Part shown: positions 1,054 through 60,554 of the stretch, piece after piece
Layout of the letters: every line of letters starts with the position of its first letter
How positions within the stretch are numbered: position 1 is the stretch's first letter
DNA from: an uncultured Candidatus Saccharibacteria bacterium
GTDB lineage: Bacteria > Patescibacteriota > WWE3 > UBA101185 > UBA10185
DNA: 63,041 nt
Direction of reading: 5' to 3'
NCBI GenBank assembly: GCA_964396025.1
Contig: CAYNBT010000001.1
Location: 3,129 to 66,169, forward strand
Notes under the pieces: generated by a model
Told to the model about the DNA's origin: nothing
Databases searched by the model: none
Seen by the model: only the letters and a program-made list of their open reading frames with translations
Made by a program: the position numbers and the translations under genes

Positions 1054-1059
1054 TATAAT
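1054..1059 (+). promoter_or_regulatory. -10 box TATAAT 6 nt upstream of the ATG at 1066 (leaderless-type)
   Basis: TATAAT-ttacgc-ATG with no purine-rich SD. Confidence 0.45.
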
Positions 1060-1065
1060 TTACGC

Positions 1066-1908
1066 ATGAATGCTAATCTCACCGAAGCCCCACGACCTGA
1101 GCTAGAAACCCCTCACGGCTTTGAATCGCTATTTCAAGCCCCAAACAACGAACTGCCATCTAACATTAAAACAGTTCTTGCCAAGGCACCTTCAGAGATC
1201 AAAGCTATTATAGTTGCGCCCTTGGTGAGAATGGAAACCACGCTTACCACCAGCGCAGACAAATTACACCCCACTGTACTAGAAAACTTCAAAAAACAAT
1301 ATGGAGTAGGTATGGAAGCTGTGGCCTTTTTTGATGGATTTTGTGAAAGCGCCAACGGCGTGGGCAAATACGAACTCAGAACCGAAACCGATCCCAATGG
1401 CGGAATCGACATCTTTATGCGCCCGTGGAAAGAAGGCGTAGCATGGGGCAAGATTGGAGAAGACAATGTAGACGAGGTGCAAATCCGAATCCGCACCGGC
1501 GAGAACACTCAAAATTCCAAAGATGCCTACACTCCAATGCAGTTGAATTTTCGGTTTTTGCAGTATGAACACGGTAAAGCCGAAGAAATCACATCACTAA
1601 GAGTCGATATGCACAACAGAGAAAATGCTGAGATTCAAGTTGATGCAATTGTTGGAGGCGACATGATGGACCGAAAGCATGAGGCTGTAAGGTCAATGAA
1701 CAATGGAGACAAAGAGGAGAACTTTAGGGCACTGCAAGCAGCTTTTTTGTTAAATTTCTCAGAGAGATTCCTGCTAAGCAAAGGCGAAGATGACAAGTTT
1801 GACATTAGGGGAGGCATTCAAGTTGATAAATCATCACGTCCACACCTTGAAACACTAGCTAAAGAACTGAACAAGGCACAAAACTTCTTGGATTCATTGA
1901 AGTCCTAA
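1066..1908 (+). CDS. hypothetical protein (280 aa)
   Basis: Long ORF with an ATG start and no recognisable motifs. By eye it is GC-richer than the core genes. Confidence 0.6.
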   Translation: MNANLTEAPRPELETPHGFESLFQAPNNELPSNIKTVLAKAPSEIKAIIVAPLVRMETTLTTSADKLHPTVLENFKKQYGVGMEAVAFFDGFCESANGVGKYELRTETDPNGGIDIFMRPWKEGVAWGKIGEDNVDEVQIRIRTGENTQNSKDAYTPMQLNFRFLQYEHGKAEEITSLRVDMHNRENAEIQVDAIVGGDMMDRKHEAVRSMNNGDKEENFRALQAAFLLNFSERFLLSKGEDDKFDIRGGIQVDKSSRPHLETLAKELNKAQNFLDSLKS

Positions 1909-5689: not shown

Positions 5690-8600
5690 TTAATTGCCTG
5701 TAAGGTTCTTTAAATAACTACCAACATTTCCAAAGAAAGATGATTCGACTTTTATCTGAGAAGGATCGGTCACAATGATCTCAGGAATCTTTCCATCTGG
5801 CCAATATAGAGATACTGTTCCATTTACTTCAACTGTCTTGCCTTTAAGACTTTCAATGTCATAGTTGAAATCTTGAGCATCTTGAGCAAAGATTCTAACT
5901 AAGAACGTTGAATGGGGATCTTCTGTGAATCCAAGATAATATGCTTTTGGAGTATTGTCTTCAACTACCTTAACAGTTCCTTTTAGAATAACATTCTGAT
6001 TTAAATAGTCTGCTGCTTGATCCCAAGAAATAACTGTAGGAGACTTAACAGTTTGGGCACCAAGTACAGAAGACATGGCGGGCGCTGTACTCATAGCTAA
6101 GTTATCATTTGACGATGCTGTAGGATTGCCATTCTCCAAAGCGATGATAGCACCGTCATTTGTCTTGACTAAGACAAGCCCGTCGGAGACAACAACAAAG
6201 GGTGTAGAACCAGAATTAGGATTGTACGAATTGTGATATTCATAAAAACCAGCAGGAAATGCTCTGGAGTCACCATAGCCATACAAACCGTTGCTACAAT
6301 ATCTTGTGCTTGAGTTGAACGGGCAGTTAGAAGGCCCGTAATTAAACAGCCCATCACCTCCTGGATAAATTGCCGGGTTGCATTGGGTATTTGAAGAATC
6401 GCAGTAGACCTGTCTCCAAATAATGTTTGGTGCTGCTACTGTCTTGATCGGATTCATATACGTATTACCAACTGCAGAACCACGATCAGTGATGGTAAAA
6501 GCCTGACTGGACAACCAGTGATTATGGAATAAGGTGTTTCCTGAACCCGTCATGTTCATCATTTCATCCGTTTGCATGTCGTGATAGTAAGCAGGGCTTG
6601 GGGGAGTTTGATAGTTTCCGGCATCAGCCCATTGAACAAATCTCATATCGCCGCCTGTATAACCTGAAACCGTGGAATTATCTAAAACCATTTCTCCAAC
6701 GCTCGCGTCCTCTCTTCCATCGCACCAGCTATCCCTTGCACAAATTTGCTGATTTCTAAATGGCACGTATGCAACATTCTTGTTTCCTATCTGTCTAACT
6801 ATTGGTTGAGGCCCCATAGGTAGATAGCCACCATCGCCTGCACCACCATTTCCAGCGTTAGGTGCGGTTGCATAGGCATCGTTACCATCATCAAGCCTTA
6901 AAGCATACAATGCTTGCTGGCGCTTAGAATTATCAGTTAAGAATGTTCTTGCTGCTGCATTTTCTGTAGGGAATGTGCCTCCAGCACCTGGTCCGTCCCA
7001 AAGTGTCTGCCAATCTAAGCGATATCTTATAAAAACTATGCCTTGAGCGTCAGCTATAACAGGCCAACCTTCTTCAGCCTGAGCTACCTCTTTATTTGAA
7101 GTACCTGGATCACCATAAGTTCGATCTGTAGGTTTGTTTGGAGCCCACTTTGCAGTACCGTCTGTTGCTTTTACTGCATGTACAAATAAGTCTCGCGTGA
7201 CATACACAACAGTATCTCTTGAACTTGAGTATGACGGTGCGGTAGCTGCGGGAGTGCTTGAACCAGCGTATTCCCAATTCTTAGTCATTGTTGATGTGGC
7301 TACAGATACTAAATGCCCATTTGCTGCAGCTACGACTACATTAGCCCCAATTAACAACGGAGCGTGATTAAGAGCACTACCTGTATCAAAACTTGCAACT
7401 GTTGCACCTGTTGAAGCATTTAGTTTATAAATAGAGTTCCCACCTGCAACATATAAATATTCATTTGCATAGGCAGGGGTAGAGTTTATGTTTCCAAGAT
7501 TATTCTTAGACCATAAAACTGTACCATTTACTTTATCGTTACTGTTTTTATCTAGGGCAAACACTGTATTGTTTGCTACCATGTACACTCTGTTACCACC
7601 TGTAATAGGCTGCACAAGATCGGGAACGCTCAGATGAGAGGATTGAGGTTTTCCGTCAGATCCTGCTCCATTCCATTGCCACTTATATTTCCAAGGTGTC
7701 GCAACGGTCTGTTCTGTGTAGTGTGTTCTCTGAGCATTACCTCCAAATTGATTCCAAGAAACAGCGCTACCTGGCAACGGAGTCGGGGTTGGAGATGGGG
7801 TTGGTGTAGGAGTTGCCGTAGGAGTAGGCGCAGGGGTCGGCGTTGGAGTAGGTGTGGGTGTAGCCGTAGGAGTTGGGGTTGGCGTTGCAGTGGGTGTGGG
7901 TGTGGGAATAAAGATGGAAGCTCCATATACGACTGCAAAGTCCAAGCTGTTGATTTTGTTATCTCTATATTGATCTAACGAATTATTGGGAGTTGCATTC
8001 CAATTCGTGATCAGAGAAATTATATCTGCAGAATCTACAAAGCCATCTCCTGTAACGTCACCATCACCGTAGGCACTGGGAGTGGGTGTTGGAGTTGGAG
8101 TCGGAGTTGCTGTAGGTACTGGAGTTGGAGTCGGAGCTGGAGTTGTAGTACCATTAATCAACTTTACTGCAAAATCATTAGAAAGTGCATTCACTGGTAT
8201 ATCTACATTTCCACCAACTGGTGTTACATTTGTAGTGGAGATTTTCTGTCCTGTATAGGTATTCCAAATCTCTAAAGTGTAAGCAGACTGCAACAAATTC
8301 TTTACAGTGACAGTACCAGATACTGCAGCAGTTGAGTTTGCTGAGTTGTACCAAGTGTTATTTCTGTTCTGAATCCAAATGTATGCATTCTTTTTGTCGG
8401 AACTTCTCATTCCATAAGCTCTTAGGACTGGATTTGAAACTGTAAGTGTTTCGCCTGTATAGCCGGGAATCGTATCGGAAGTGCCCATTAGAAATGTGAA
8501 ACTGCTTCCGGCATAATTGACCCCACTAAAATATTCCTTCGCCGCCTTCCTTTGCTCATAGCGTTTTGCTGTGGTTGCTGAATCCTCTTGATCCCAATAC

Positions 8601-10180
8601 CAGTCCAAAGGCGTAGTCCCAAGAGGCGAGAATAACCCAGCCCACATACTGTTATGAAGCATACGAACGCGACCTTCTCCCGATTTTGCAAGAGGATTTA
8701 CTTCATTCCAATTTGCAGTGCCAGCATCAAATTCGCCCCAAATCCACGGCATTTGTCCTTTTCCAGCAGCCCAAGATGTTCCGTCTCCTAATCCAAGCTG
8801 ACTACAATAGGTACTTGAGGCAGGGCTCTTTGTTATATCTCTCAAACACCACGCAGTTCTATATATAAAATTTGCCTCATCATACTTGAGTTCAGCAGGA
8901 GTCTGGCTAAAATCCATCATATAATTGTGATAGTTTGCAATATCAAAAAAACCGGAAGACCAAAACGCAGGGCTGTAAGCTTGAGAACCCTGAGATGTAG
9001 TTCTTAAGTGTTTATAAGGATCGACTTGCAACTGATACTGACTATATGCCTGATAAAATCTGTACTCAGGACTGTTAGGCAGTACGTGGCCGTGTTCGTT
9101 CCAAGCTTCCCATGCTAAAACAGATGGAGAATAACCCCAACGAGCTACTCTATATCTAAAGTTTCTTTTCCAGTAATTTATATGTCTGAGGCTATCAAAT
9201 GCTTGAGGAGAGGAATTCCAGCTTTCATTGTAGGTTGCCCCATCCCAGATCCAGTAAGGATCGCCATGTGAGGTAATTTGAATGTAAACCCCGTTTTTCT
9301 CTGCCGCCTCAATGATTTTATCTTCTTCATAATTACCTCGCTGATTAAGTTGAGTGCCTTTTTGCGTAGTACTTAGATCTACATTGCGATCGACAGGGTT
9401 AAAATCGTAAGGATAGGAATATGCGTCATAATGCCCTTCGGTTGTAAGACCATAACCATCGTTCTGATCCCATATTCTAGTAAAATTGACGCCATTGGCC
9501 CCAAAGAGTGCAAAGGTATTTTCGTAATCCCAGCTCCTCTTGCCGCAGCAAAGCCACCATTGTCGCCCACTACCTACTGGAACAAAGCTAGTGCCATCAT
9601 CAAATTCCAAGAAACGACTATCTTTACTGGAGACTCTTACAAAACCCTTTTGGCTCGAACTAGTAACTGAAAAATTCAAGTCGCCAAAAACAGGATGCCT
9701 AGTACTGCCGGTTTTGTCTTCAACAGTTAGATAGTATTTATAGGTACCGGTTTCGGAAGGCGTGAATCTAACCTTCCATGAATAATTGTTAGTAGGAGTC
9801 ATTGTCTCAGAAGTAGAATAGGAACCTGTTCTCTGAAAATCCTGATAATAAAAAGCCGGAACCTTAAACGTCTTACCGGACGGTGCAGTAAAGTGAGCAT
9901 CAACAGAAATCCCATCTATTCCATAAGGAGAATTCCTGCCGGGATCAGCAGTAGGAGTATCTGATGAGTCATAATAATAATAGGGCAAGATGGAATCTGC
10001 CGGATACGTCTTGGAAATCTGAAAATCCAGTTCATATTTTTTAAATTTTTGCACGGAAGTAGAAGATGATGATATTGACGTTACATAAGGTGTGGATTGA
10101 GCATAAGTAGACTCAGAAACACAGACAGCTAGAAGCAACAACATCAATATAAACAATGATTTGTAAAAAAGTATCCGCAT
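5690..10180 (-). CDS. 1496-aa secreted multidomain protein: Ig-like N-domain + GH5-like (clan GH-A) barrel + dockerin-like module + PQQ/BamB-like beta-propeller + OB-like C-terminal domain
   Basis: Signal peptide '[15 protein letters not shown]'. Candidate acid/base 'AWEAWNEHG' and nucleophile 'WIWGEFDAG'. Dockerin loops '[12 protein letters not shown]' and '[12 protein letters not shown]'. Repeated '[18 protein letters not shown]'-type propeller blades. Two PT linkers. Confidence 0.75.
7775..7906 (-). repeat. imperfect repeat encoding PT linker B (residues 759-802) of the 1496-aa protein
   Basis: '[44 protein letters not shown]'. Confidence 0.9.
8078..8146 (-). repeat. imperfect repeat encoding PT linker A (residues 679-701) of the 1496-aa protein
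   Basis: '[23 protein letters not shown]'. Confidence 0.9.
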
Positions 10181-10189
10181 TCGAGAACA

Positions 10190-10198
10190 ATTTCAGCA
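10190..10198 (-). promoter_or_regulatory. extended -10 (TGcTGAAAT) 9 nt upstream of the ATG at 10180
   Basis: Minus strand reads TGCTGAAAT-tgttctcga-ATG with no SD. Confidence 0.4.
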
Positions 10199-10238
10199 CT
10201 TATGTCTTACGGTGTCAATACATACACAACAAAATATG

Positions 10239-11022: not shown

Positions 11023-11712
11023 CTACTTTTTGATGAAACTCGAAAGGTAGTATTTGGTTTGCTTTATTTTGTCGGCAATTTTCTCGTGAATGCCTTTCTT
11101 GTTCTCCTTATAAATGTGAATCATAGGAGGCAGGACGGAAGCCATAATAATAACCAATACAATGGGTAGAAGATACTTGTCTACGTCCGGAATCAAACTA
11201 CCTAAAAAGTATCCCGAGAGCATCAAACCAAACACCCACAAAGTTCCACCAATAAAGTTAAAAAACATGAATTTTCTCAAATTCATGTGGCCTACTCCTG
11301 CAACGATTGGAGCAAATGTGCGTACAACAGGCATAAAACGAGCTAATATTATGGCCTTACCACCGTGTTTTTCATATAATTCTTCAGCTTTAATGAGATG
11401 AGCCTTTTTAAAAAGCAAAGAGTCTTCTCGTCTAAACAGTTTCCTGCCCACCTTAGAGCCAAAATGATAACCAACGTTATCTCCTAAAATTGCCGCAATC
11501 CAACTCCCAATCACTAAGGGTAAAATGTCAAAAAAGGCAACGCTTGGTGATGCTAAAAAACCCGCCGTAAAAAGTAAACTGTCGCCCGGTAGAAAAAAAC
11601 CTACTAACAAACCGGATTCAGCAAAGATCACTAAGTAAATTCCAAAATAGCCAATTTGTTCGATAAATGTTCGCAAATCGTGTTCTATAAAGAGAGTTCT
11701 AAAAATTTCCAT
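11023..11712 (-). CDS. dedA: DedA/SNARE-associated family membrane protein
   Basis: 'GLLVGFFLPGDSLLFTAGFLA' and 'GGKAIILARFMPVVRTFAPIVAG' are DedA hallmarks. Confidence 0.8.
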   Translation of the reverse strand: MEIFRTLFIEHDLRTFIEQIGYFGIYLVIFAESGLLVGFFLPGDSLLFTAGFLASPSVAFFDILPLVIGSWIAAILGDNVGYHFGSKVGRKLFRREDSLLFKKAHLIKAEELYEKHGGKAIILARFMPVVRTFAPIVAGVGHMNLRKFMFFNFIGGTLWVFGLMLSGYFLGSLIPDVDKYLLPIVLVIIMASVLPPMIHIYKENKKGIHEKIADKIKQTKYYLSSFIKK

Positions 11713-11718
11713 TACAGA

Positions 11719-11727
11719 ATAGTATCA
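11719..11727 (-). promoter_or_regulatory. extended -10 (TGaTACTAT) 6 nt upstream of the dedA ATG
   Basis: Minus strand reads TGATACTAT-tctgta-ATG with no SD. Confidence 0.5.
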
Positions 11728-15056: not shown

Positions 15057-15062
15057 AATTGA

Positions 15063-15071
15063 ATTGTATCA
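15063..15071 (-). promoter_or_regulatory. extended -10 (TGaTACAAT) 6 nt upstream of the clpE-like ATG
   Basis: Minus strand reads TGATACAAT-tcaatt-ATG with no SD. Confidence 0.5.
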
Positions 15072-38343: not shown

Positions 38344-38350
38344 ACATTGA

Positions 38351-38356
38351 ATATTA
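38351..38356 (-). promoter_or_regulatory. -10 box TAATAT 7 nt upstream of the ATG at 38343
   Basis: Minus strand reads TAATAT-tcaatgt-ATG with no SD. Confidence 0.4.
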
Positions 38357-38387
38357 ACATTAATTCGCTACCTAAAAAAGTTAATAA

Positions 38388-42306: not shown

Positions 42307-42313
42307 TGTTACT

Positions 42314-42322
42314 ATGTTAGCA
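42314..42322 (-). promoter_or_regulatory. extended -10 (TGcTAACAT) 7 nt upstream of the ileS ATG
   Basis: Minus strand reads TGCTAACAT-agtaaca-ATG with no SD. Confidence 0.4.
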
Positions 42323-42427: not shown

Positions 42428-42529
42428 TTACTTAAAAATTCTGAATATAGCTGTAATGGAACCTACAACTGCCTCTACTACAGAGAATATTGGGGCTGTT
42501 ATGGCTTCCATTATTGCTTGAATTATCAT
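42428..42529 (-). CDS. possible 33-aa hydrophobic micro-protein (leaderless-type start)
   Basis: MIIQAIMEAITAPIFSVVEAVVGSITAIFRIFK. TATAAT lies 6 nt upstream of the ATG, and the ORF is followed by a strong terminator. Confidence 0.35.
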   Translation of the reverse strand: MIIQAIMEAITAPIFSVVEAVVGSITAIFRIFK

Positions 42530-42535
42530 GCAGCC

Positions 42536-42541
42536 ATTATA
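42536..42541 (-). promoter_or_regulatory. -10 box TATAAT 6 nt upstream of the ATG at 42529
   Basis: Minus strand reads TATAAT-ggctgc-ATG. Confidence 0.4.
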
Positions 42542-42560
42542 CCGGTTTTTTGTTGATATG

Positions 42561-43118
42561 TCAAGGTTTGGAAAGGCGATTTGAGGAAAACCACAAAGTA
42601 TCCTGCACATTAAAGGTGTGATTAGCCGTACGTGCCATCACAAAAAGGAGATCCGAAAGCCTATTAATATAGGGTATTGAAACACTCGGTTCAGTAGACT
42701 CGGACTCGCAAAATAGGACCGTAGCTCTCTCAAGCCTACGGCAAACAGCCCGAGCCAAATGTAAATAACCGGATGCAACACTACCTCCAGGTAAAATGAA
42801 ATTTGTAAGGCGCGGCAAAGATTTTTCTAACTTATCAATCTGACGTTCATAGTACCTGCAGCGTTTGTGGAGTGCTTTTTTGTCCAAAGGTTGTTTATAA
42901 ACCATAGAATATAATGCGCCAAGTTCAAACAGATCACTTTGAATAAGCTCAATCAGCATCTGCAAGTCTCTAGTCGAGTGAGCAGCTGCAAGGCCCAAAT
43001 AGCAATTCAATTCGTCTAGAGTACCTAGAATCTCAAATATAATGTGAGACTTGGAAAGTTTTTTCCCACCAAAAAGTGAGGTAGTTCCCTTGTCTCCATT
43101 TCGTGTGTATATTTTCAT
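42561..43118 (-). CDS. ATP:cob(I)alamin adenosyltransferase, PduO type
   Basis: 'MKIYTRNGDKGTTSLFGG' and 'FILPGG...LHLARAVCRRLER'. Confidence 0.85.
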   Translation of the reverse strand: MKIYTRNGDKGTTSLFGGKKLSKSHIIFEILGTLDELNCYLGLAAAHSTRDLQMLIELIQSDLFELGALYSMVYKQPLDKKALHKRCRYYERQIDKLEKSLPRLTNFILPGGSVASGYLHLARAVCRRLERATVLFCESESTEPSVSIPYINRLSDLLFVMARTANHTFNVQDTLWFSSNRLSKP

Positions 43119-43154
43119 ACTTTTAAGCTAAGCATTTCATATGGCAGGGAACAA

Positions 43155-48200: not shown

Positions 48201-48968
48201 TCATTCATATGATACTATCACTTTGTCGAAGCGTAAATCAATTTTTTTTGGTTTCTTTCCTTCCACAGCCAATTGTTGCAAAAGCTTAGAAAGCACTCGA
48301 ATGCTGTTTCCGCGATCTTTCTCAAACGAGAACAAAGCTAAAACATTGTTAGCATATACTGACACATAATTGCTGTTCGCGCTAATGCTACTTACTTTCA
48401 TTCCTTCCTCGTTTGAGACTGTAAGAATCTCCAAATAAAGTGGCACTAGATGACGAGGTATAAAACTACCTATTTTAATTTCTTCATTATATAGAATCTT
48501 GGGTAAATCTTTTGTACTGGGATCTGCAAATCCCAAAACATAACCATCTTCATCTACAAGATAATTTTCGTTCTTAGTGTTGTAAATTACGGCAAAGGGT
48601 TTTCTTTCTACAACAACAAGGTTAAGTGTGCTTGGAAATCTTTTTGAAACTTTTACTTGGCGTGCACCCTGAAATGAATTCAAGATATCATAGGTCAAGT
48701 TGGATTTATCTAAAAAAATGAGGTTTTTACCAAATGTATTCGAGCGCACTAAAGACTTTAAGTCTGTCTGATTTACAAATCTATGCGTACCACTCACAAC
48801 TATCGCTTTTACCGTAAAAAACTGACTCTTGAACACGATAAGATAAGTAAGTGTTGGAACTAAAATCACTAAACATAGCGTGACTGCAATATTCAATAAC
48901 ATATTGATACGCGCCATAACACCCGTACTTTTTGAACTAATTGTCTTTTTTGAAGCGTAATATCTCAT
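48201..48968 (-). CDS. ftsQ: FtsQ-like POTRA domain cell division protein
   Basis: TM 'IAVTLCLVILVPTLTYLIVF' followed by a POTRA-like 'FTVKAIVVSGTHRFVNQTDL'. An alternative ATG at 48917 is possible. Confidence 0.7.
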   Translation of the reverse strand: MRYYASKKTISSKSTGVMARINMLLNIAVTLCLVILVPTLTYLIVFKSQFFTVKAIVVSGTHRFVNQTDLKSLVRSNTFGKNLIFLDKSNLTYDILNSFQGARQVKVSKRFPSTLNLVVVERKPFAVIYNTKNENYLVDEDGYVLGFADPSTKDLPKILYNEEIKIGSFIPRHLVPLYLEILTVSNEEGMKVSSISANSNYVSVYANNVLALFSFEKDRGNSIRVLSKLLQQLAVEGKKPKKIDLRFDKVIVSYE

Positions 48969-50046
48969 TTATGATTAATTGGTCTGAATCTTTGCTGGTA
49001 TAGCTCAATCGCGAAGATGGATCTATTCTATATTGGGAAAGATTTTCAAGAATCTCTTGTGTTATCTTTAGCAGAGTTTCTTTGTTCAGCATTGGTTCTT
49101 CCAAGATTCTGGCTATACCTGCGTCTTGTAGCAATTTGGCGTTCATATACTGTTCGTTATGAGATACCCAAGGTATAGGTATTATCAAGGCGGGTTTGTT
49201 TAGAGCTATAATCTCCAAACAAGTATGCGCACCACCCCGGCTGATAAACATGTTAGATTTCTGCATAATCTCACCTATCTCATAAGATAAGACAAATTTT
49301 CGTAGTATATATTTACCTGAAACATTACTTTGAATTTTTTTGTAACTTTCCGAAAGACTATCAAAATCTGCAAAAACCGAGTTATCCCCACATTGATGAA
49401 TTACATTGCACATTGTCAATAATTCAGGCAGTGCCCCTTCTACGGCTTGGTTTATTTTATGGGAGCCTGTTTTACCTGCAGTAACATACACTGTTGGTAA
49501 GGAATTGTTCAAAATCAAATCAGTTGAAGTTGACTCAAATATCTCTTTTCTCAAAGGCAAGCCTGTCTTAACTATTTTGTTCTCTTGGAAATATTTTTGG
49601 GAACTTGGCCACGTGATCATAATCTTTTTGGCAAATCTTGCCACAACTAGATTTGCCCAGCCTGCTACTGAGGTCTGTTCGTGAGTGATAGAAGGAATTC
49701 CCATTAACCATGCAACAATTACAACTGGCACAGCTAAATATCCCCCAAATGAAAGTATAAGATCGGGTCTTATAGTAAGTAACAGATACAATGAATGCAC
49801 GAATCCTAATGGGATTCTTGCTAACCGAGTCGGGTTATAGGTTTTATAGAATTTACCCGCAATCAGGTTGTAAAAAGGTATTCCTAGACGGTTTATATCT
49901 ACATATTCAAGCGTAGGGTTTTTGTCCCCTTTACTTGTGTGTTTATGGCCAAACCAGTATAGCTTTATTTCCTTATGCTCATTTAACAATCGGGAAACTA
50001 TGGGCATTGCAGATGTGTGATGACCTCCTGTGATGACAATTTTCAT
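48937..50046 (-). CDS. murG: UDP-GlcNAc:lipid I N-acetylglucosaminyltransferase MurG
   Basis: GT28 fold pattern ('ITGGHHTSAMPIV', 'ISRGGAHTCLEI') and its position in the dcw cluster. Confidence 0.8.
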   Translation of the reverse strand: MKIVITGGHHTSAMPIVSRLLNEHKEIKLYWFGHKHTSKGDKNPTLEYVDINRLGIPFYNLIAGKFYKTYNPTRLARIPLGFVHSLYLLLTIRPDLILSFGGYLAVPVVIVAWLMGIPSITHEQTSVAGWANLVVARFAKKIMITWPSSQKYFQENKIVKTGLPLRKEIFESTSTDLILNNSLPTVYVTAGKTGSHKINQAVEGALPELLTMCNVIHQCGDNSVFADFDSLSESYKKIQSNVSGKYILRKFVLSYEIGEIMQKSNMFISRGGAHTCLEIIALNKPALIIPIPWVSHNEQYMNAKLLQDAGIARILEEPMLNKETLLKITQEILENLSQYRIDPSSRLSYTSKDSDQLIINEILRFKKDN

Positions 50047-50052
50047 ACTAGG

Positions 50053-50061
50053 ATTATTTCA
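50053..50061 (-). promoter_or_regulatory. extended -10-like (TGaAATAAT) 6 nt upstream of the murG ATG
   Basis: Minus strand reads TGAAATAAT-cctagt-ATG. Confidence 0.35.
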
Positions 50062-51297: not shown

Positions 51298-52383
51298 TTA
51301 CAGTAAACAAACAAAGATGCCTATTAAAGACCCAATAGCACCAAATAACCAAAACCTCATTGTCACTTTACTTTCAGGCCAACCTAAAAGCTCAAAGTGA
51401 TGGTGAATAGGCGCCATCCTAAAAAGACGTTTTTTTGTTAGTTTTACCGAAAACTGCTGTAATGGGCTGGAAATTCCATCAACCAAGAAGACAGCGCATA
51501 TAAACAATAACCCTATCTCCCTATGCATTACCACTGCCAAAATCGAAATTGCAGCACCAAGTACATGTGAGCCAACATCACCCATAAAAATTCTGGCTGG
51601 GTGGATATTGAAATAAAGAAAGGGTAAAAGTGCTCCAATGAAAACAGCACAGAGTGTACCTATTGAATTATATTCGAGTGCAGAAGCAACCACCCAAAGT
51701 GCTGTAAATGAGATTGCTGCTAACCCACCGGCTAAACCATCTATACCATCAGTAAAAGCTACAAAATTTAAGACTAGCAAAAAAAGAAAAAAGACGAAGA
51801 TAGGATAAAAAAACCCTATATGCACATCGCCTATAAGAGGCAACCATAAAAAATCCCAACCAAGTTTGAAATAAGTCCAGTATGACACGAATCCTGCTAT
51901 TACAGACTGTATTATGAGCTTCTGGTATGTGTGCAGGCCGCGTCCAGAGGCACTGCCAATAACTCTAGACAATTCCATAAAGTAATACCAAGGCTTAAGC
52001 AGTAACTTAACGAGCTTGGTATCAGAAAATCTTGGTTGCGGGTTTGTTGTTAACGTTAGTTTAAAAACTTCGTTAAGACTTGACCTGCGATATACTTTTG
52101 CAAAATCTTCCATTATGCCAAATAATCCAGCGGCACTTGCGATGAATATGGGAAACAAAGTTTGAGTTCGGGACTTATTAAACAACAACGTCATTACTGC
52201 CGCGGTAAAAATAAAAACCATTCCCCCCATAGTCGGAGTTCCTTTTTTTACCAAATGGCTTTGTGGGCCATCAGCTCGAATTTCCTCACCCATATGATAC
52301 TTATACACAAAGTTGATCCACAATGGATATAAAAGAAAGGTTACGACTAGAGTTATAAGTAGCTGTATCAGCTGATCTATCAT
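51298..52383 (-). CDS. mraY: phospho-N-acetylmuramoyl-pentapeptide transferase MraY
   Basis: 'KKGTPTMGG', 'TDGIDGLAGG', 'FMGDVGSHVLG', 'APIHHHFE'. Confidence 0.92.
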   Translation of the reverse strand: MIDQLIQLLITLVVTFLLYPLWINFVYKYHMGEEIRADGPQSHLVKKGTPTMGGMVFIFTAAVMTLLFNKSRTQTLFPIFIASAAGLFGIMEDFAKVYRRSSLNEVFKLTLTTNPQPRFSDTKLVKLLLKPWYYFMELSRVIGSASGRGLHTYQKLIIQSVIAGFVSYWTYFKLGWDFLWLPLIGDVHIGFFYPIFVFFLFLLVLNFVAFTDGIDGLAGGLAAISFTALWVVASALEYNSIGTLCAVFIGALLPFLYFNIHPARIFMGDVGSHVLGAAISILAVVMHREIGLLFICAVFLVDGISSPLQQFSVKLTKKRLFRMAPIHHHFELLGWPESKVTMRFWLFGAIGSLIGIFVCLL

Positions 52384-52389
52384 GAGTAG

Positions 52390-52398
52390 AGTATATCA
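52390..52398 (-). promoter_or_regulatory. extended -10 (TGaTATACT) 6 nt upstream of the mraY ATG
   Basis: Minus strand reads TGATATACT-ctactc-ATG with no SD. Confidence 0.5.
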
Positions 52399-53750: not shown

Positions 53751-53975
53751 TTATCTGGCAAGAATCAAATAGACAGAATTAACAATAAAAACTAAAAGTA
53801 GAGTTATTGTTAAACCAAACACCACGCGCTCTAAACCTCTACGGGATTTGTAAAAACCGATGCTACTACCAACGGCAGAAGTAAGACCTTTTCCTTTGCT
53901 TTGAATAAGAACTAACGCGACAAGCAAAATAGAAATAATTATCTGTAATATTTGACTTAAAAAAATTATATTCAT
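53751..53975 (-). CDS. secG: preprotein translocase subunit SecG
   Basis: 74 aa, two TM helices, 'LVALVLIQSKGKGL...GSSIGF'. Confidence 0.7.
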   Translation of the reverse strand: MNIIFLSQILQIIISILLVALVLIQSKGKGLTSAVGSSIGFYKSRRGLERVVFGLTITLLLVFIVNSVYLILAR

Positions 53976-54391
53976 TTTTTCTTTTTAACAAAACACAACC
54001 AATTAAGAAAGTTATAGGTTGTACTGATGATTATGGCAGAAACTACGGCAGACCAAAATTTTGTAAGACTTTTAGATGTTAGCACAACAGTAAAAATAAG
54101 CAAATTCGGCGTAGAAGATTCGAGAATATCAAAAAAGGGCAATACCAATGAAAACAGCCGAAGTAAAATGAAAGTCATAACAGAGCTCAGTAACCCAAAC
54201 ATAATGCCTTCGGTTGGTAACGAGATGATCTTAAACACAGGCCCTAAGAACAGATACAACAACGCCAAACCTACTACTACCAAAGACACTGTAAAACCAC
54301 GATTCCCTCCAAAAAAAAGCGCTTGTAAAATATTTTGTGAAAAAAGTACAGCTATGTAAGTAAATGTTAATGCTCTCAAAAACGTCCTCAT
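53972..54391 (-). CDS. hypothetical four-TM membrane protein
   Basis: ATGA-coupled at both ends, between uvrC and secG. Confidence 0.55.
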   Translation of the reverse strand: MRTFLRALTFTYIAVLFSQNILQALFFGGNRGFTVSLVVVGLALLYLFLGPVFKIISLPTEGIMFGLLSSVMTFILLRLFSLVLPFFDILESSTPNLLIFTVVLTSKSLTKFWSAVVSAIIISTTYNFLNWLCFVKKKK

Positions 54392-55761
54392 GTTTTTATT
54401 ATAGTGGTTTTTGAAATACTTTTTAGTCTTAATTTATGATGATAATTTTGAGCAAATCTATGCGCTTCATCTCTGAGGCGTTGAACCAACTTTAAGCCCT
54501 CATTGGTCTTTTCTAAAACAACTTCCTCAAAGCCGTTGCTGGTAGGAACAATTAATGTCTCAAATCTTTTCGCAATGCCTATAACAGGAACTTCAAAATG
54601 GATATCTTTCATAGCTTGCAGCGCCGCAGTTACTTGGCCTTTACCCCCATCTATAATCAGTAAATCTGGAGCTCCCCAAGACCTTGAATTATCGGCATCT
54701 GCTTCTCTTGATAATCGGCGCGTAAGAACTTCCCTTAACATAGCGAAATCATCCGGAGTGTTTTTGGTTTTAATCTTAAATCTCTTGTACTCTGATTTTT
54801 CCAATTTTCCTTCTATTGCTACTGTCATTGAACCGACCGAATCTGTGCCAGAAATATTTGAAATGTCGTAACATTCGATCCTGCCTAGATTTAACTTTTT
54901 TCCGAATATTGCCTGCGACAATTCACTCAAGGACTTACTTCTTAGATCGTCTATCAAATATGGATTATCTATGTAACGTTGAGCAGTTCTAAAATTCTCT
55001 TTTATGTAATTGATTCTATTCAAATCATCACGATATGAAGCTGCAAGTTCGTAGTTCTGATGTCTAGAAGCATTCTTCATAAGGCTACTAATGTTACGCA
55101 CCAAACCCAAACTACCTCCTGACAAAAAACGTTTAATTTTATCAATATCTTTTCTATAGGATACAAGTGAATATGCAACTGTACATGGAGCGTTGCACAG
55201 TTTAAGAAATCCATACAAGCAAGGAGTGTCCGACTTGTGGTGTTTATTAAATTTAGCAGCAGAGCAATCCCTGTAAGGAAATGCGCGACGAATGTAACGC
55301 ATCATTTTTCTAACTGTGTCACCGCTTGGATATGGACCAAAATACTGATCTGAAGGCAAAATGTCCGATTCTCTTGCGGCTAAAACCTTGGGGATTTTAG
55401 CAACTTTACCTGCTTTTTTCAGTTTTTCTACTCTGATTACAATATAGAGATATGATTTATCATCCTTCATTGCAATGTTGTATTTGGGTTGATGTTTTTT
55501 TATCAAAGCGGCTTCAAGTATCAATGCTTCAATCTCAGAACTCACCTCTATATAATTTATAGATTCAATGTGTTGAACAAGATTATAGGTTTTTGAGGCA
55601 GGATCAAGATTTGATGCAAAATAGGATTTAACCCTGTTTTTCAAATTCTTTGCTTTACCTACATAAATAATTGCACCAAGAGAATCTTTATATATGTATA
55701 TTCCCGGAACCTGAGGGAGAGCTTTAATTGTAGTTTTGTCTGCTACTTCAATCTTGTGCAT
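54388..55761 (-). CDS. uvrC: excinuclease ABC subunit C, short form lacking the C-terminal (HhH)2 domain
   Basis: GIY-YIG 'PGIYIYKD...IIYVGKAKNLKNRVKSYF'. UVR 'NYELAASYRDDLNRINYI'. Endonuclease domain 'IECYDISNISG...RDEAHRFA', after which the protein stops at 457 aa. Confidence 0.85.
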   Translation of the reverse strand: MHKIEVADKTTIKALPQVPGIYIYKDSLGAIIYVGKAKNLKNRVKSYFASNLDPASKTYNLVQHIESINYIEVSSEIEALILEAALIKKHQPKYNIAMKDDKSYLYIVIRVEKLKKAGKVAKIPKVLAARESDILPSDQYFGPYPSGDTVRKMMRYIRRAFPYRDCSAAKFNKHHKSDTPCLYGFLKLCNAPCTVAYSLVSYRKDIDKIKRFLSGGSLGLVRNISSLMKNASRHQNYELAASYRDDLNRINYIKENFRTAQRYIDNPYLIDDLRSKSLSELSQAIFGKKLNLGRIECYDISNISGTDSVGSMTVAIEGKLEKSEYKRFKIKTKNTPDDFAMLREVLTRRLSREADADNSRSWGAPDLLIIDGGKGQVTAALQAMKDIHFEVPVIGIAKRFETLIVPTSNGFEEVVLEKTNEGLKLVQRLRDEAHRFAQNYHHKLRLKSISKTTIIKT

Positions 55762-55767
55762 AGTTAG

Positions 55768-55776
55768 ATTGTACCA
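55768..55776 (-). promoter_or_regulatory. extended -10 (TGgTACAAT) 6 nt upstream of the uvrC ATG
   Basis: Minus strand reads TGGTACAAT-ctaact-ATG with no SD. Confidence 0.55.
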
Positions 55777-55783: not shown

Positions 55784-55792
55784 TGCTAAACT
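55784..55792 (+). promoter_or_regulatory. extended -10 (TGcTAAACT) 7 nt upstream of the ATG at 55800
   Basis: TGCTAAACT-atcttaa-ATG with no SD. It lies back-to-back with the uvrC -10. Confidence 0.5.
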
Positions 55793-55799
55793 ATCTTAA

Positions 55800-57659
55800 A
55801 TGAGAAAATATTTATACTTTGCCCTAATATCGGTTTTTGCTGGCCTAATGCTATGGTCTGATCAAGTGAATGCTCAAAGCAATACTGAACCCATATTTGA
55901 TGTCGAGTACAACATTAGATATGAAATCAAAGAAACCGCCGAAACCTCAGTATTTCAAAGTGTAGGAATCATAAACAGGCAAACTGATGTAATACCTACC
56001 AATTACACACTCTCCATTAACCAAATGTCAGTTTATGATGCAAAAGCATTCATGGACGGAGACGAGCTTGAAACAAAATTGGAACAAGAAAATTCCACTT
56101 ATAAAATTAAAACAAAATTTGAGCAACAAGCCATTGGTGAGGGTAAAAAAACGCAATTTGATATAGAGTACAAAACCAAAGACATTGCTTCACAGGTGGG
56201 CAAGATATGGAACATCAACATCCCCAAAGTGGAAATGTCTAACAATACTAAGCTTTACAATATAGAGCTGTTGGTTCCTAAGTCGTTCGGACCAATGATT
56301 TTTGTATCCCCTACACCGTCTGATATAGAAGAATTAGCAAACCTTACAATATTTAGATTTAGTAAAGATCAGCTAAAAAATGTAGGCATATCTGCCTCGT
56401 TTGGAAGCTACCAACTAGTAAACTTTCGCCTTAGATATCAACTACAAAACCCCTCATCATTTTCATCCTATTATGAGATCGCCTTACCCCCAGATCTAAA
56501 ACAAAGGCAGCAAGTAATATTTCATCAGCTAAAACCTACTCCAACAAAAATGTTCGTGGACGAAGATGGAAACTTTATAGCAAGATATAAGCTAAAAGCG
56601 AAAGAACAGATGGATGTTGAGTTTATAGGTGCGGCAAAGATCTTTGGTCGGCAGATAAATCCAACATTTGGAGGAGAGTTTGAAAAGATACCGCAAAAAA
56701 TAAAAACGGCATATACCAAACCGGATACTTATTGGGAAGTTGAGAGTAGTGAAATTCAAAAAATAGCCGAATCCCTCAAAGACAAAAACGCTAACGTAAC
56801 ACTAAATGCGCAAAAAGCTTATGAGTTCACCGTGGCAAAACTACAGTATGATTTTGATCTGGGAAATAAAGAAACTGTAGTGAGAAAAGGGGCTAAGCAG
56901 GCACTCAATGAACCGGTCAAAGCCGCGTGTATGGAGTTTACAGATCTCTTTATCGCAATAGCGAGAGCTATGGGGATACCTGCAAGAGAGTTAAATGGGT
57001 ATGCAATAGCAAATGACATATCCAATGCCCCATTGTCAGTTAATCTGCGTGGCGGTGATTATCTCCACGCATGGCCAGAATTTTACGACCCAATCTACGG
57101 ATGGATTGCTGTCGATCCAACTTGGGGAAATACCTCAAAGGTCGATTACTTTACAAAGTTGGATACAAATCATTTTGTTTTTTCTGTAAAGGGTTTGGAT
57201 TCGGAATTTCCTGCACCTGCAGGTAGTTATAAATACGACGAAAAGAATAAACAGGTTGAAGTAGATTTTGCGCAAGACACACTACAAAAAACAGAAAAAT
57301 ACGATCTTAGGTTAACAAAGCTGATCTCTCTAAACCCACTCAAAATGTTTAGCAAAGAACAGCTATACCGAGTTGAAAATACAGGTAATGTAACTATCTA
57401 CAACCCAAACAATAATGATTCCATTATTCTCCCAAATGGATCTGCATTAATCTACATTGAAAACTCAAAGTCATATATTTCATACGAAGATTTTATAGGC
57501 TCAAGATACACAGCAGCATTACCCAAATCGGCACCTGTACAAGCAGAAGCTATCTTCAACAAAGTTAACCTCCAAACCCTTATTGGTATTGGCGGAGTGC
57601 TTGTGCTGTATACGATTCTTTATTGGTTCTTAATTCGTCTAGGGATCCGGAGAAAATAA
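55800..57659 (+). CDS. secreted/anchored transglutaminase-like cysteine protease-fold protein
   Basis: Signal peptide. Cys-His-Asp triad context 'ACMEFTDLF', 'YLHAWPEFY' and 'WIAVDPTWG'. C-terminal TM anchor. Confidence 0.75.
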   Translation: MRKYLYFALISVFAGLMLWSDQVNAQSNTEPIFDVEYNIRYEIKETAETSVFQSVGIINRQTDVIPTNYTLSINQMSVYDAKAFMDGDELETKLEQENSTYKIKTKFEQQAIGEGKKTQFDIEYKTKDIASQVGKIWNINIPKVEMSNNTKLYNIELLVPKSFGPMIFVSPTPSDIEELANLTIFRFSKDQLKNVGISASFGSYQLVNFRLRYQLQNPSSFSSYYEIALPPDLKQRQQVIFHQLKPTPTKMFVDEDGNFIARYKLKAKEQMDVEFIGAAKIFGRQINPTFGGEFEKIPQKIKTAYTKPDTYWEVESSEIQKIAESLKDKNANVTLNAQKAYEFTVAKLQYDFDLGNKETVVRKGAKQALNEPVKAACMEFTDLFIAIARAMGIPARELNGYAIANDISNAPLSVNLRGGDYLHAWPEFYDPIYGWIAVDPTWGNTSKVDYFTKLDTNHFVFSVKGLDSEFPAPAGSYKYDEKNKQVEVDFAQDTLQKTEKYDLRLTKLISLNPLKMFSKEQLYRVENTGNVTIYNPNNNDSIILPNGSALIYIENSKSYISYEDFIGSRYTAALPKSAPVQAEAIFNKVNLQTLIGIGGVLVLYTILYWFLIRLGIRRK

Positions 57660-60540
57660 TCTTACCTCCTAAATCTCCACCTTCAGGACCTAAGTCTATC
57701 ACCCAATCGGAATTGTTTATGATATCCAAATTATGTTCAATTACAAGCACGGTATGTCCTCTGCTGGTTAAACGCTTGATTATACCAATTAATCTCTCGA
57801 GATCTGAGAAATGTAGTCCCGTAGTTGGCTCATCCAAAATATAAAGAGTGCTCCCTGTAGGACGTTTAGAGAGTTCTAATGCAAGCTTAACTCTTTGCGC
57901 TTCTCCGCCCGACATAGTAGGTGCAGGTTGCCCAAGATGCATATAACCTAAGCCTACTTCAAACATGGTCTTGAGTTTGCGTCTTATATTGGGAATATTC
58001 TCAAAGAAGGCTAACGCTTCTTCTACGGTCATCTCTAACACATCGCTTATAGATTTCCCCTTGTAGAGCACTTCCTGGGCTTCTCGGTTGTATCGTTTTC
58101 CTTGGCAGACTTCGCAATCAATGTATACGTCAGGCATAAATTGCATTTCAATCTTAACTTGACCCTCACCTGCACAGGCTTCGCATCTACCACCTTTTAC
58201 GTTAAAACTAAACCTTCCAGGCCCATACCCTCGCACACGTGCTTCTTCTGTCTGGGCGTATAGGTCTCTAATGTGATCAAAGGTCTTTGTGTAAGTGGCG
58301 GGATTTGATTTGGGAGTTCGCCCAATTGGGGTTTGATCAATTGCTATAACTTTATCTATGTATTCCAACCCTGCTATATCCTTGTATTCTTCGGGCTTTT
58401 CATCGTTTTTTAGACCATGTTCTTGACGCAAAACTCTGTGTAAAGTGTCCATCACAAGAGTGGATTTTCCAGATCCAGAAACCCCCGTCACACATACAAA
58501 CTTTCCTAGGGGAATGTGCATATCGACATTTTTAAGATTCCTTCCACTGGCACCAGTCAATACCAAATATTTACCTTCTACGGATGCTTTGGGCTCGAAT
58601 TCGTCTTCTGGAAGTTTTACTGTGCCCTTACCTACTTTTTTCTTTCCAGAAAGGTACTTTCCTGTAATGGAGTTGGGGTTTTTCATTATTTCCTGTGGAG
58701 TTCCGTGCGCCATGATGTTACCACCATGTTCGCCAGCACCTGGACCAAAATCAAAGATGTAATCACTTTCCAGCATAGTTTCCGTGTCATGTTCAACTAC
58801 CAAAACAGTGTTACCAAGGTCTCTCAAATGCTTCAAAGTTTTTATAAGCTTCCCCTGATCCCTTTGATGTAATCCAATAGAAGGCTCATCTAGTACATAC
58901 AATACTCCGGAGAGCCCAGAGCCGATTTGGGAAGCCAATCTTATTCTTTGTGCTTCACCCCCAGATAAATGCCCGGATGCACGGCTTAAGGTCAAATATC
59001 CAAGTCCAACATCTAACAAAAATTTGATTCTATAATTGATTTCCTTGTTTATTGAATCGGCTATTGTCGCTTCACGCTCGGAAAATATGTTTGGTAATGA
59101 GTTGAACCAGATCTTAAAATCGTCAATAGAAAGATTAGATACTTCATAAATGTTTTTACTATCTATGTGCACAGAAAGTGACGAGTCTTTTAGACGCGAT
59201 CCTTTGCACTCTAAGCATGGCTCAAGCACCATGTACTTTTCTATATCGTTTCTAATAAAATCGGATTTTGTTTCTTTATGGCGTCTAAGAAGGTTTGGTA
59301 TCACACCTTCATATTTTGCAAAGTAAACACCTGATTTCACATCACCGGAACTGTATGATACCCTAAACTTTCTACCTTCTGGCGCACCATACAATATGAG
59401 CTCAAAGATATCTTTAGGCAAATCGCCTATGGGAACATTGAGGGAAAACTCATATTCCTTTGCCACTGCCTCTATAACTTTAGATATCCAAGTATCCTTT
59501 TCGGCCAAATTCGACCAAGGAAATATGCCACCTTCTAGTATAGATAATCTAGGATTCATAACTTGATTTATATCTACATCTAGTTGAGTACCCAACCCGT
59601 CACATGCAGGACAGGCTCCATGAGGAGAGTTAAAAGAAAATGTTCTGGGTTCTATGTCCGGTAGCGACAAGTTGCATGAAGGACACGCAAAATTTTCAGA
59701 GAACAAATGGTCTTCATAGTCCTTGGGGTCATCAGTAAAATCAAAATCTTTATCTTTAACAAGTGTGATCACCACGTTGCCGTTACTTAGTTTTGCGGCA
59801 ATCTCAACATCTTGGGTTAATCTAGCAATAGTTTCCTTGTAGTCTTCTTCATCTTTCAATCTCTTTGCGCTTAAAATATGACGACTTATCAATGCTTCCA
59901 CAGTGTGTTTGTTGGTCTTTATGAGTGCGAACTTATCGGTTAAGTTCTTCATAGAACCATCGATACGTGCACGAACAATACCTTGTCGTTTCAAATTATC
60001 AAACAATGAGGAGAATTCACCCTTTCTGTCTCTAACTACAGGAGAAAATACAAGAATACGAACACCTCTCTCTGTTGAATAGGAATGTTCGTTCTGAACC
60101 ATACGTACAACTTGATCCGCGATCTGCTGAACGCTTTGTCTACTTATTTCCCTCCCGCACTTAGGACACTTAGGATGCCCTACTCTTGCAAAAAGAAGCC
60201 TTAGAAAATCATATATCTCAGTGATAGTTCCAACAGTAGATCTGGGATTCCTCGAAGTTGTCTTTTGGTCAATCGCGATAGCTGGAGACAATCCCTCAAT
60301 CTTCTGAACCTCAGGCTTTTTCATGACACCAAGAAACTGTCTGGCATATGCGGATAAGCTCTCAACATACCTACGCTGACCTTCAGCATAAATTGTATCC
60401 ATTGCAAGCGAGGATTTGCCAGAGCCCGACACACCGGTAAAAACCACGAACTTGTACTTGGGAATTTCAAGATCTACATTCTTCAAGTTATGCTCGCTGG
60501 CACCTTTTATTATGATTTTATCGTTTGAGAACTCTGACAT
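57580..60540 (-). CDS. uvrA: excinuclease ABC subunit A
   Basis: Walker A 'GVSGSGKSSL' and 'GVSGSGKSTL', ABC signatures 'LSGGEAQR' x2, and zinc modules 'CPKCGREI' and 'CEACAGEG'. Confidence 0.95.
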   Translation of the reverse strand: MSEFSNDKIIIKGASEHNLKNVDLEIPKYKFVVFTGVSGSGKSSLAMDTIYAEGQRRYVESLSAYARQFLGVMKKPEVQKIEGLSPAIAIDQKTTSRNPRSTVGTITEIYDFLRLLFARVGHPKCPKCGREISRQSVQQIADQVVRMVQNEHSYSTERGVRILVFSPVVRDRKGEFSSLFDNLKRQGIVRARIDGSMKNLTDKFALIKTNKHTVEALISRHILSAKRLKDEEDYKETIARLTQDVEIAAKLSNGNVVITLVKDKDFDFTDDPKDYEDHLFSENFACPSCNLSLPDIEPRTFSFNSPHGACPACDGLGTQLDVDINQVMNPRLSILEGGIFPWSNLAEKDTWISKVIEAVAKEYEFSLNVPIGDLPKDIFELILYGAPEGRKFRVSYSSGDVKSGVYFAKYEGVIPNLLRRHKETKSDFIRNDIEKYMVLEPCLECKGSRLKDSSLSVHIDSKNIYEVSNLSIDDFKIWFNSLPNIFSEREATIADSINKEINYRIKFLLDVGLGYLTLSRASGHLSGGEAQRIRLASQIGSGLSGVLYVLDEPSIGLHQRDQGKLIKTLKHLRDLGNTVLVVEHDTETMLESDYIFDFGPGAGEHGGNIMAHGTPQEIMKNPNSITGKYLSGKKKVGKGTVKLPEDEFEPKASVEGKYLVLTGASGRNLKNVDMHIPLGKFVCVTGVSGSGKSTLVMDTLHRVLRQEHGLKNDEKPEEYKDIAGLEYIDKVIAIDQTPIGRTPKSNPATYTKTFDHIRDLYAQTEEARVRGYGPGRFSFNVKGGRCEACAGEGQVKIEMQFMPDVYIDCEVCQGKRYNREAQEVLYKGKSISDVLEMTVEEALAFFENIPNIRRKLKTMFEVGLGYMHLGQPAPTMSGGEAQRVKLALELSKRPTGSTLYILDEPTTGLHFSDLERLIGIIKRLTSRGHTVLVIEHNLDIINNSDWVIDLGPEGGDLGGKIIFSGSLDELRTNKESYTAQALRQYQ

Positions 60541-60548
60541 AGTTATCG

Positions 60549-60554
60549 ATTATA
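60549..60554 (-). promoter_or_regulatory. -10 box TATAAT 8 nt upstream of the uvrA ATG
   Basis: Minus strand reads TATAAT-cgataact-ATG with no SD. Confidence 0.45.

Follow-up and report, generated by a model that had tools for sequence, protein, structure and literature searches.

A 63-kb stretch of uncultured bacterial DNA (the window, meaning the whole of the DNA that was analyzed) raises the question of how its genes are transcribed and translated, as many of them carry a hexamer resembling a bacterial -10 promoter element only 6-7 nucleotides (nt) before the start codon. Leaderless mRNAs made from extended -10 promoters, together with Shine-Dalgarno (SD) sequences or translational coupling at the internal genes of operons, are very probably the best explanation for this arrangement. 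The boxes are enriched at this fixed distance, have the architecture of promoters, do not occur together with SD sequences, and are conserved in related genomes, whereas we infer from these properties where transcription starts and how the mRNAs are translated.

The window has a GC content of about 40%, is densely coding, contains four tRNA genes and no rRNA, and reads cleanly with TGA as a stop codon. Gene names given in an earlier, preliminary description of the same DNA (among others DedA/VTT, Clp-type AAA+ ATPase, and PolX) were borne out. Its FtsZ shares 65% identity with the FtsZ of Candidate division WWE3 bacterium RAAC2_WWE3_1 (RAAC2), in which a 21-kb stretch (locus L003) is syntenic with window positions 34-58 kb. 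The closest relatives of its isoleucyl-tRNA synthetase (IleRS), some of them labelled WWE3, show 58-65% identity, and the DNA runs that contain the window sequence are wastewater metagenomes. Judged by its sequence, the source organism is an uncultured member of WWE3/Katanobacteria, a lineage of the candidate phyla radiation (CPR). The comparison set consisted of the RAAC2 locus and seven WWE3-like loci around IleRS (including L101-L104), all eight about 60-65% identical to the window in IleRS, and these seven carry gene calls (132 genes) that are independent of this analysis. Orthologues were compared across the window, RAAC2, and the first four fetched loci, that is, six loci at most, as some genes are missing from some loci.

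A box at a fixed distance from the start codon

The 60 nt upstream of 51 long open reading frames (ORFs) were listed, and each site was re-extracted by coordinate. Spacings are given as Nx, where x is the number of nucleotides between the last base of the hexamer and the start codon. Of 50 starts, 12 have the core hexamer TANNNT ending at N6 and 4 have it ending at N7, with 0-5 occurrences at each other spacing (background about 2). For the extended box TGnTAnnnT (TGNTANNNT), the counts are 7 and 3 of 50, respectively, and 0-1 elsewhere. Control ORFs built by the identical rule, in which the first ATG after a stop codon is taken as the start, show the extended box at N6/7 in 1 of 201 cases, compared with 10 of the 50 real starts (Fisher 4e-7). 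The preliminary description had suggested a comparison with dinucleotide-shuffled upstream regions, and the excess turned out to be clear: 1000 shuffles yielded 0.23 ± 0.47 extended boxes at N6/7 (maximum 3, compared with 10 observed) and 3.4 ± 1.7 core hexamers (compared with 17 observed). Only 15 strings of the form TGNTANNNT-N6/7-ATG occur on both strands of the window, and 10 of them open genes of 229-959 amino acids (aa).

Promoter architecture and relation to Shine-Dalgarno sequences

When 18 sites were aligned on the hexamer, T-7 was found in all of them, T-12 and A-11 in 17 each, A-8 in 16, and T-15 and G-14 in 14 each. The TG one base ahead of the hexamer, by which extended -10 elements are recognized, is thus present in 14 of the 18 sites, and a purine stands at -16 in 12. 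Further upstream, T occurs at -35 in 11 sites and at -34 in 15. These two positions lay outside the selection criterion and match bases 1 and 2 of a -35 hexamer at the canonical 17-bp spacing. Of the -35 element, only this TT is conserved, several of the -35 positions are located within an adjacent gene, and a full TTGACA at 17 bp was found in two sites (the giant gene and a micro-ORF). As candidate promoters, the boxes behave like those of the sigma-70 type, mostly TGn-extended and with a weak -35 element (TTnnnn). How promoters can be accommodated in gaps of 22-40 bp, where the -35 region lies within the adjacent gene, may be explained by the TGn extension. One WWE3 relative has a primary sigma factor with IPVHMIE in region 3.0; in E. 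coli sigma-70, this segment makes contact with the TG of extended -10 promoters.

The boxes are distributed according to where the genes stand in their transcription units. Genes preceded by a gap of their own or by a divergent neighbour carry the core box at N6/7 in 15 of 32 cases and the extended box in 10 of 32, while the corresponding counts for operon-internal genes are 2 of 19 and 0 of 19 (Fisher 0.007 and 0.005, respectively). SD sequences are nevertheless in use, as AGGAG or GGAGG precedes 8 of 52 genes compared with 3 of 199 control ORFs. These SD-led genes include the operon-internal L27 and gatB genes and a few small hypothetical genes. It had been stated previously that the boxed genes lack an SD sequence, and indeed no gene in the window combines a box at N6/7 with an SD-like motif. 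All 18 candidates of the window open with ATG, and GTG was found in three orthologues of relatives.

An SD-like motif is also missing at 13 of the 19 operon-internal genes (for example, 3907-5688, 19116-20555, 38388-39446, and 50083-51285). SD-independent initiation by coupling or re-initiation thus seems to be common beyond the putative leaderless genes.

Conservation in WWE3 relatives

At amino acid identities of 37-69% between the RAAC2 locus and the window, boxes at N6/7 have been kept in RAAC2 at uvrC (TGCTACAAT-N6-GTG), its divergent neighbour (TAGCAT-N6), the 139-aa gene (TATAAT-N7), ftsZ (TGGTATAGT-N6), the PduO gene (TGGTATCAT-N6), the LytR_C gene (TGTTATAGT-N7), and lepB (TAAAAT-N6). 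The PduO box lies at N5-N7 in all four loci that could be compared, with the orthologues showing the forms TGGTATCAT-N6, TGTTAGACT-N6, and TGTTAACTT-N5. Five of six WWE3 loci have a box at N6-N9 in front of murG and at N6-N7 in front of the LytR_C gene, and for lepB it stands at N6 in three of six loci and at N9-N10 in a further two. L27, on the other hand, is SD-led in four of six. Among the 132 independently called genes of the seven loci, TGNTANNNT was counted 10 times at N6, twice at N7, three times at N8, and twice at N9, with 0-1 at any other spacing. The metagenome relatives found in a scan with UvrC are all at most 45% identical and show a mixture of SD and box signals, and are too distant for footprinting.

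The gene encoding a 400-aa protein has the box at N6-N7 in five of five loci once the start in L102 is shifted by two codons to a conserved Met. The database start in L102 (17022-17030) lies two codons before this Met, which follows TGGTAGAAT at a distance of 6 nt and matches the other orthologues in the alignment. From this alignment, a mis-called start by an SD-oriented gene finder is likely.

A box is also found further away from the start of the L21 gene (TAAGAT, TAATAT, or TATTAT at N10-N13) in the window (35497-35530, minus strand), L003, L102, and L104, whereas L101 and L103 gave no such box. This distance would point to a conserved leader of 4-6 nt rather than to none.

Taken together, the enrichment, the shared T at -35/-34, the boxes at tRNA genes, and the conservation in WWE3 argue for a native promoter and not an artefact of AT-rich sequence, as the preliminary description had proposed. 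In support, it had cited the same TGn-extended -10 element ahead of tRNA-Asp, tRNA-Gly, and tRNA-Thr, which is confirmed in the sequence.

The leaderless interpretation and its alternatives

In the proposed mechanism, the boxes would be the -10 elements of housekeeping (sigma-70-type) promoters, and 6-7 nt separate the final T of each hexamer from the A of the ATG. Since RNA polymerase usually initiates at a purine some 7 nt downstream of the hexamer, a gap of 6 nt would place the transcription start at the A of the ATG, and the transcript would begin at 5'-AUG or within one or two bases of it. At N7 sites, the same A would be used with a discriminator that is one base longer, whereas N8-N10 sites would yield leaders of 1-4 nt and would not be strictly leaderless. 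An mRNA that starts at the AUG and has no SD sequence would have to be translated through the leaderless route, in which the ribosome together with the initiator tRNA binds the 5'-terminal AUG. Operon-internal genes would be served by an SD sequence (L27 and gatB) or by close coupling to the upstream stop codon. In about half of the transcription units, the promoter is placed such that the mRNA should start at the start codon. The claim of widespread leaderless mRNAs in the preliminary description was favoured by every sequence-based test that could have spoken against it, the transcription start itself being deduced from the position of the box.

Several observations weigh against this interpretation. 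The spacing drifts among the WWE3 loci (from N7 to N14 for ileS and from N5 to N12 for ftsZ). A generic scan for -35/-10 consensus promoters found 38 sites in the window compared with 48.5 in shuffled sequence and hence no excess, which means that the signal resides only in the extended box and its fixed distance to the ATG. The sole 12-of-12 match in that scan was the promoter of the micro-ORF. Leaderless candidates and other genes did not differ in the predicted 5' folding energy of their first 45 coding nt. At the gathering threshold, Rfam matches in the window were limited to the four tRNAs; the window has no 16S rRNA from which an anti-SD sequence could be read. A comparison of 60 kb of the window with four metatranscriptomes from wastewater and with two further runs of unknown type gave scattered contigs of 150-400 nt at a depth of 2-5, a coverage too sparse for 5' ends, and no transcription start was seen. 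Finally, dedA, mraY, murG, and the LytR_C gene, which had been listed as first in their units, begin 36-44 nt behind a co-directional gene; their first position is thus presumed, and expression by read-through is also possible.

For these four genes, it is conceivable, though rather unlikely, that the box acts as a minor promoter inside the unit or has no function and that they are mainly expressed as internal cistrons of longer transcripts. The short gaps in front of them have no terminator-like hairpin, and in RAAC2 mraY and murG are preceded by an SD sequence instead. However, none of the four has an SD sequence in the window, and two of them (murG and the LytR_C gene) have kept the box in five of six WWE3 loci.

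A second alternative would see in the box not a promoter but an AT-rich, non-SD translation signal on mRNAs with ordinary leaders, comparable to that of Bacteroidota ("group B"). The box occupies a position typical of a ribosome-binding site (6-8 nt), and some SD-independent initiation must exist given the many operon-internal genes that have no SD sequence. A translation signal should precede internal genes as well, yet the extended box is found at none of the 19, and the conserved T at -35/-34 and TG at -15/-14 are contacts of the polymerase and not of the ribosome. The same box also stands upstream of tRNA genes. We consider this explanation highly improbable.

It is just as improbable that real promoters are present but translation truly starts at codons further downstream, so that the mRNAs have ordinary leaders and the ATG at N6 is an artefact of choosing the first in-frame start. 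The starts were indeed set by ORF logic, the L102 call differs by two codons, and the L21 gene of RAAC2 probably begins at its second Met. On the other hand, the N-termini begin at the same residue as those of orthologues with 40-69% identity (FtsZ MFVKPEIERFAK, MurG MKIVITGGHH, UvrC, and the products of the LytR_C and 400-aa genes), no SD sequence lies within the first codons, and the box occurs in a single one of 201 control ORFs defined in the same way. The correction in L102 favours the leaderless interpretation, since the shift to the second Met restores N6.

The idea that the pattern arises by chance in AT-rich DNA or as a by-product of in-frame stop codons (TGn at -15 and TAn at -12 are in frame with the ATG, so that TGA, TAA, and TAG can fall there when ORFs are taken from the first start after a stop, and TGA opens four of the boxes) is refuted by the control ORFs, which dispel the stop-codon concern as they were built by that same rule, by the shuffles, which never exceeded 3, and by 162 kb of low-GC non-CPR loci without any peak, and we give it practically no weight.

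Individual sites and neighbouring elements

The sites of the window are listed in Table 1. All 16 motif strings and spacings that had been quoted previously were read back correctly: the extended or bare boxes at N6 (dedA, the Clp ATPase gene, polX, the gene starting at 32775, mraY, murG, uvrC, lepB, the 1066 gene, and the micro-ORF), those at N7 (the transglutaminase-like gene starting at 55800, ileS, and the LytR_C gene), and the three starts further out (uvrA, the giant gene, and the 28413 gene). Two descriptions needed amendment. The box of the LytR_C gene (38343) had been given as the bare hexamer TAATAT; its N7 spacing holds, but the site is in fact TGn-extended. For murG, string and spacing are right, while its hexamer (AATAAT) does not fit TAnnnT. 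Three sites had been absent from the earlier list (the genes starting at 27812 and 54391, and the PduO gene).

Table 1. Candidate promoter boxes in the window, with gene and box coordinates, strand, and spacing to the start codon or mature tRNA
Feature	Gene coordinates	Box or unit coordinates	Strand	Motif and spacing	Remarks
Hypothetical gene without Pfam match	1066..1908	1054..1068	+	TATAAT-N6-ATG	
Giant gene (1496 aa)	5690..10180	10178..10218	-	TTGACA-N17(TGC)-TGAAAT-N9-ATG; TGCTGAAAT	predicted leader 1-2 nt
DedA/VTT-domain gene	11023..11712	11710..11727	-	TGATACTAT-N6-ATG	
Clp-family AAA+ ATPase gene	12957..15056	15054..15071	-	TGATACAAT-N6-ATG	
polX	22419..24173	24171..24188	-	TGGTATCAT-N6-ATG	
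tRNA-Asp promoter		24196..24241	+	TTGACT-N17-TACGAT, TGC before	hexamer end 17 nt from mature 5' end
tRNA-Thr upstream region		25134..25171	-	TGATATACT (N29); TGCTTAGCT (N11)	two boxes
Gene 26955..27812	26955..27812	27810..27827	-	TGCTAACAT-N6-ATG	
tRNA-Gly promoter		28275..28293	-	TGGTATTCT	10 nt from mature 5' end
Big_13/Glucodextran_B gene	28413..29153	28394..28415	+	TGCTATCAT-N10-ATG	predicted leader about 3-4 nt
391-aa gene	31600..32775	32773..32790	-	TGCTAAAAT-N6-ATG	start 24 nt from that of the divergent GH18 gene (32800)
lepB	34192..34794	34180..34194	+	TACAAT-N6-ATG	overlaps an opposite-strand TAGGAT box upstream of tRNA-Val
LytR_C-domain gene	36976..38343	38341..38359	-	TGTTAATAT-N7-ATG	
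ileS	39427..42306	42304..42322	-	TGCTAACAT-N7-ATG	
Micro-ORF (33 hydrophobic codons)	42428..42529	42428..42564	-	TTGACA-N17-TATAAT-N6-ATG	coordinates of the whole unit
PduO-type adenosyltransferase gene	42561..43118	43116..43134	-	TGCTTAGCTTAAAAGT-ATG	read as TAGCTT-N6
murG	48937..50046	50044..50061	-	TGAAATAAT-N6-ATG	deviant hexamer AATAAT
mraY	51298..52383	52381..52398	-	TGATATACT-N6-ATG	
139-aa membrane protein gene	53972..54391	54389..54403	-	TATAAT-N6-ATG	inside uvrC 3' end
uvrC	54388..55761	55759..55776	-	TGGTACAAT-N6-ATG	
Transglutaminase-like gene	55800..57659	55784..55802	+	TGCTAAACT-N7-ATG	back to back with uvrC box, 38-nt intergenic region
uvrA	57580..60540	60538..60554	-	TATAAT-N8-ATG	

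Some divergent start codons are only 22-38 nt apart (window 32776-32799 and 55762-55799, L104 17034-17055, and L003 ~1140-1161). In the L104 pair (ATTATATAAT), the gap measures 22 nt, TATAAT is present on both strands, and the two boxes overlap by TA. The RAAC2 pair (ATGCTACAAT) likewise has a 22-nt gap with -10 boxes that overlap by TA. Both genes of these two pairs would be leaderless from a bidirectional promoter with predicted starts about 23 bp apart. The window pair 32775/32800, with a gap of 24 nt, has the degenerate TAGCAC without T-7 as its plus-strand box.

The micro-ORF (MIIQAIMEAITAPIFSVVEAVVGSITAIFRIFK) lies between the PduO gene and ileS, has a perfect consensus promoter, and is followed by two hairpin terminators (42370-42564, minus strand). 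Its product could be a small membrane peptide or a toxin-like one. At the tRNA-Gly gene, the metatranscriptome contig X27 (28220-28298, depth 4) covers the tRNA and 24 nt upstream, and its 5' end reaches beyond the start predicted from the TGGTATTCT-N10 box, although a depth of 4 is too low to weigh. A second box (TGTTATGGT) was noticed about 38 nt upstream of the same tRNA.

Small hypothetical genes with a strong GGAGG or AGGAG adjoin tRNA-Thr and tRNA-Asp (25285-26915, GC 0.43 compared with about 0.39), and two SD-led paralogues stand at the opening of the window (252-991). This cluster and the paralogues are possibly acquired DNA that has kept a different initiation signal.

A 20-bp hairpin with the invariant loop GGCAGU was observed in the 5' leader of the ribonucleotide reductase gene of the window (~45483-45534, minus strand) and again in L101 (~6795-6874), L103 (~5635-5714), L003 (~11311-11390), and L102 (~6718-6797). 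Ten of its pairs show compensatory changes over the five WWE3 loci, regardless of the class of the downstream reductase, and no matching Rfam family was found for it. The hairpin is a possible regulatory RNA element that has so far no name.

Spread over other lineages and significance

The share of first-start ORFs of at least 100 aa that have the extended box at N6/7 was determined in all fetched loci, replacing a count of any in-frame ATG in long ORFs that proved too noisy. This share is 15.9% in the window and 10.9% in other WWE3 loci. It falls to 3.0% in Parcubacteria-labelled, 2.5% in Microgenomates-labelled, and 2.2% in unlabelled CPR loci, and to 0% in Peregrinibacteria-labelled and Gracilibacteria-labelled loci (24 ORFs in the latter). 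Bacillota and cyanobacteria of low to mid GC content gave 0% and high-GC controls 0.3%. The non-zero CPR shares outside WWE3 are several-fold above the local background. The trait is thus strongest in WWE3 and weaker across much of the CPR. That TGn-extended leaderless initiation is the default for first cistrons in WWE3 (roughly at least half of the units), including bidirectional units of 22-25 bp, is a generalization whose chances of being right or wrong we see as evenly balanced.

If this generalization is right, WWE3 would be a low-GC lineage with the standard genetic code that uses leaderless mRNAs as widely as Actinobacteria and Deinococcus do, and the reduced ribosome of the CPR would be linked to SD-independent initiation. 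The leaderless interpretation itself would extend the range of leaderless-rich bacteria to a low-GC lineage beyond Actinobacteria, Deinococcus-Thermus, and Mollicutes, and would give a testable picture of translation initiation in an uncultured lineage with tiny genomes and a reduced ribosome. There would also be practical consequences: promoters in WWE3 could be read straight from the sequence, and, since most CPR genomes have been annotated by SD-tuned gene finders, starts would be mis-called if many first genes are leaderless. In the divergent intergenic regions of 22-38 bp, the extended -10 element would let two genes share almost no non-coding DNA.

Comparison with known systems

A full-text literature search found no paper that treats leaderless mRNAs in CPR/Patescibacteria or Saccharibacteria. 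In a study of CPR ribosomes, loss of the anti-SD sequence was reported only for a subgroup of Parcubacteria, and leaderless mRNAs were not discussed (PMC9297842).

The closest parallel is provided by the group C genomes of GeneMarkS-2. In Mycobacterium tuberculosis and Deinococcus deserti, a TANNNT box lies 6-8 nt from where the first genes of operons begin, SD sequences serve other genes, and a quarter to half of the transcription units are predicted to be leaderless (PMC6028130). Since 2018, gene finders have made use of a Pribnow box that lies 6-8 nt from the start (PMC6028130, PMC9581028). The window shows the same mixture of a -10 box before first genes and SD sequences elsewhere. Group C, however, mainly comprises Actinobacteria and Deinococcus-Thermus, and its members that use genetic code 11 are almost all high-GC (bioRxiv 10.1101/2022.07.25.500264), whereas the window belongs to the CPR, has a GC content of about 40%, and carries boxes that are TGn-extended in 14 of 18 cases. 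Low-GC examples of group C occur among the Mollicutes with genetic code 4, and these Mycoplasma-type genomes resemble the window in low GC content and a reduced genome, with 30-60% of their transcripts predicted to be leaderless (bioRxiv 10.1101/2022.07.25.500264). They belong to another lineage and use another genetic code, while TGA is a stop codon in the window. Archaeal leaderless transcription (group D) likewise produces mRNAs that begin at the start codon, but its TATA box lies about 26 nt upstream, in contrast to the bacterial -10 box at 6-7 nt described here.

In promoter structure, the boxes are similar to the extended -10 promoters of E. coli and Gram-positive bacteria, with which they share the TG one base ahead of the hexamer, a purine at -16, a weak -35 element, and the IPVHMIE segment kept in the sigma factor of one WWE3 relative. 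Such extended -10 (TGn, "TRTGn") promoters were reportedly the subject of work by Mitchell et al. in 2003, to which PMC12641261 refers. In E. coli and low-GC Gram-positive bacteria, they normally drive leadered mRNAs with strong SD sequences, whereas the boxes of the window are locked 6-7 nt from the ATG. Bidirectional promoters that arise from the symmetry of the -10 element are known as well. In the passage of PMC10268837 that deals with Warman et al. 2021, divergent starts are given as 7-25 bp apart, with a mode of 18 bp. The predicted starts of the L104, RAAC2, and window 32775/32800 pairs fall within the 7-25 bp of that passage, and their candidate opposite-strand -10 boxes overlap, the second box of the window pair being the one that has no T-7. 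Compared with what is stated there, the predicted separation in WWE3 is 23-25 bp rather than the modal 18 bp, and both products would be leaderless protein-coding mRNAs. What these comparisons describe is a known mode of expression that appears lineage-wide in WWE3, and not a new mechanism.

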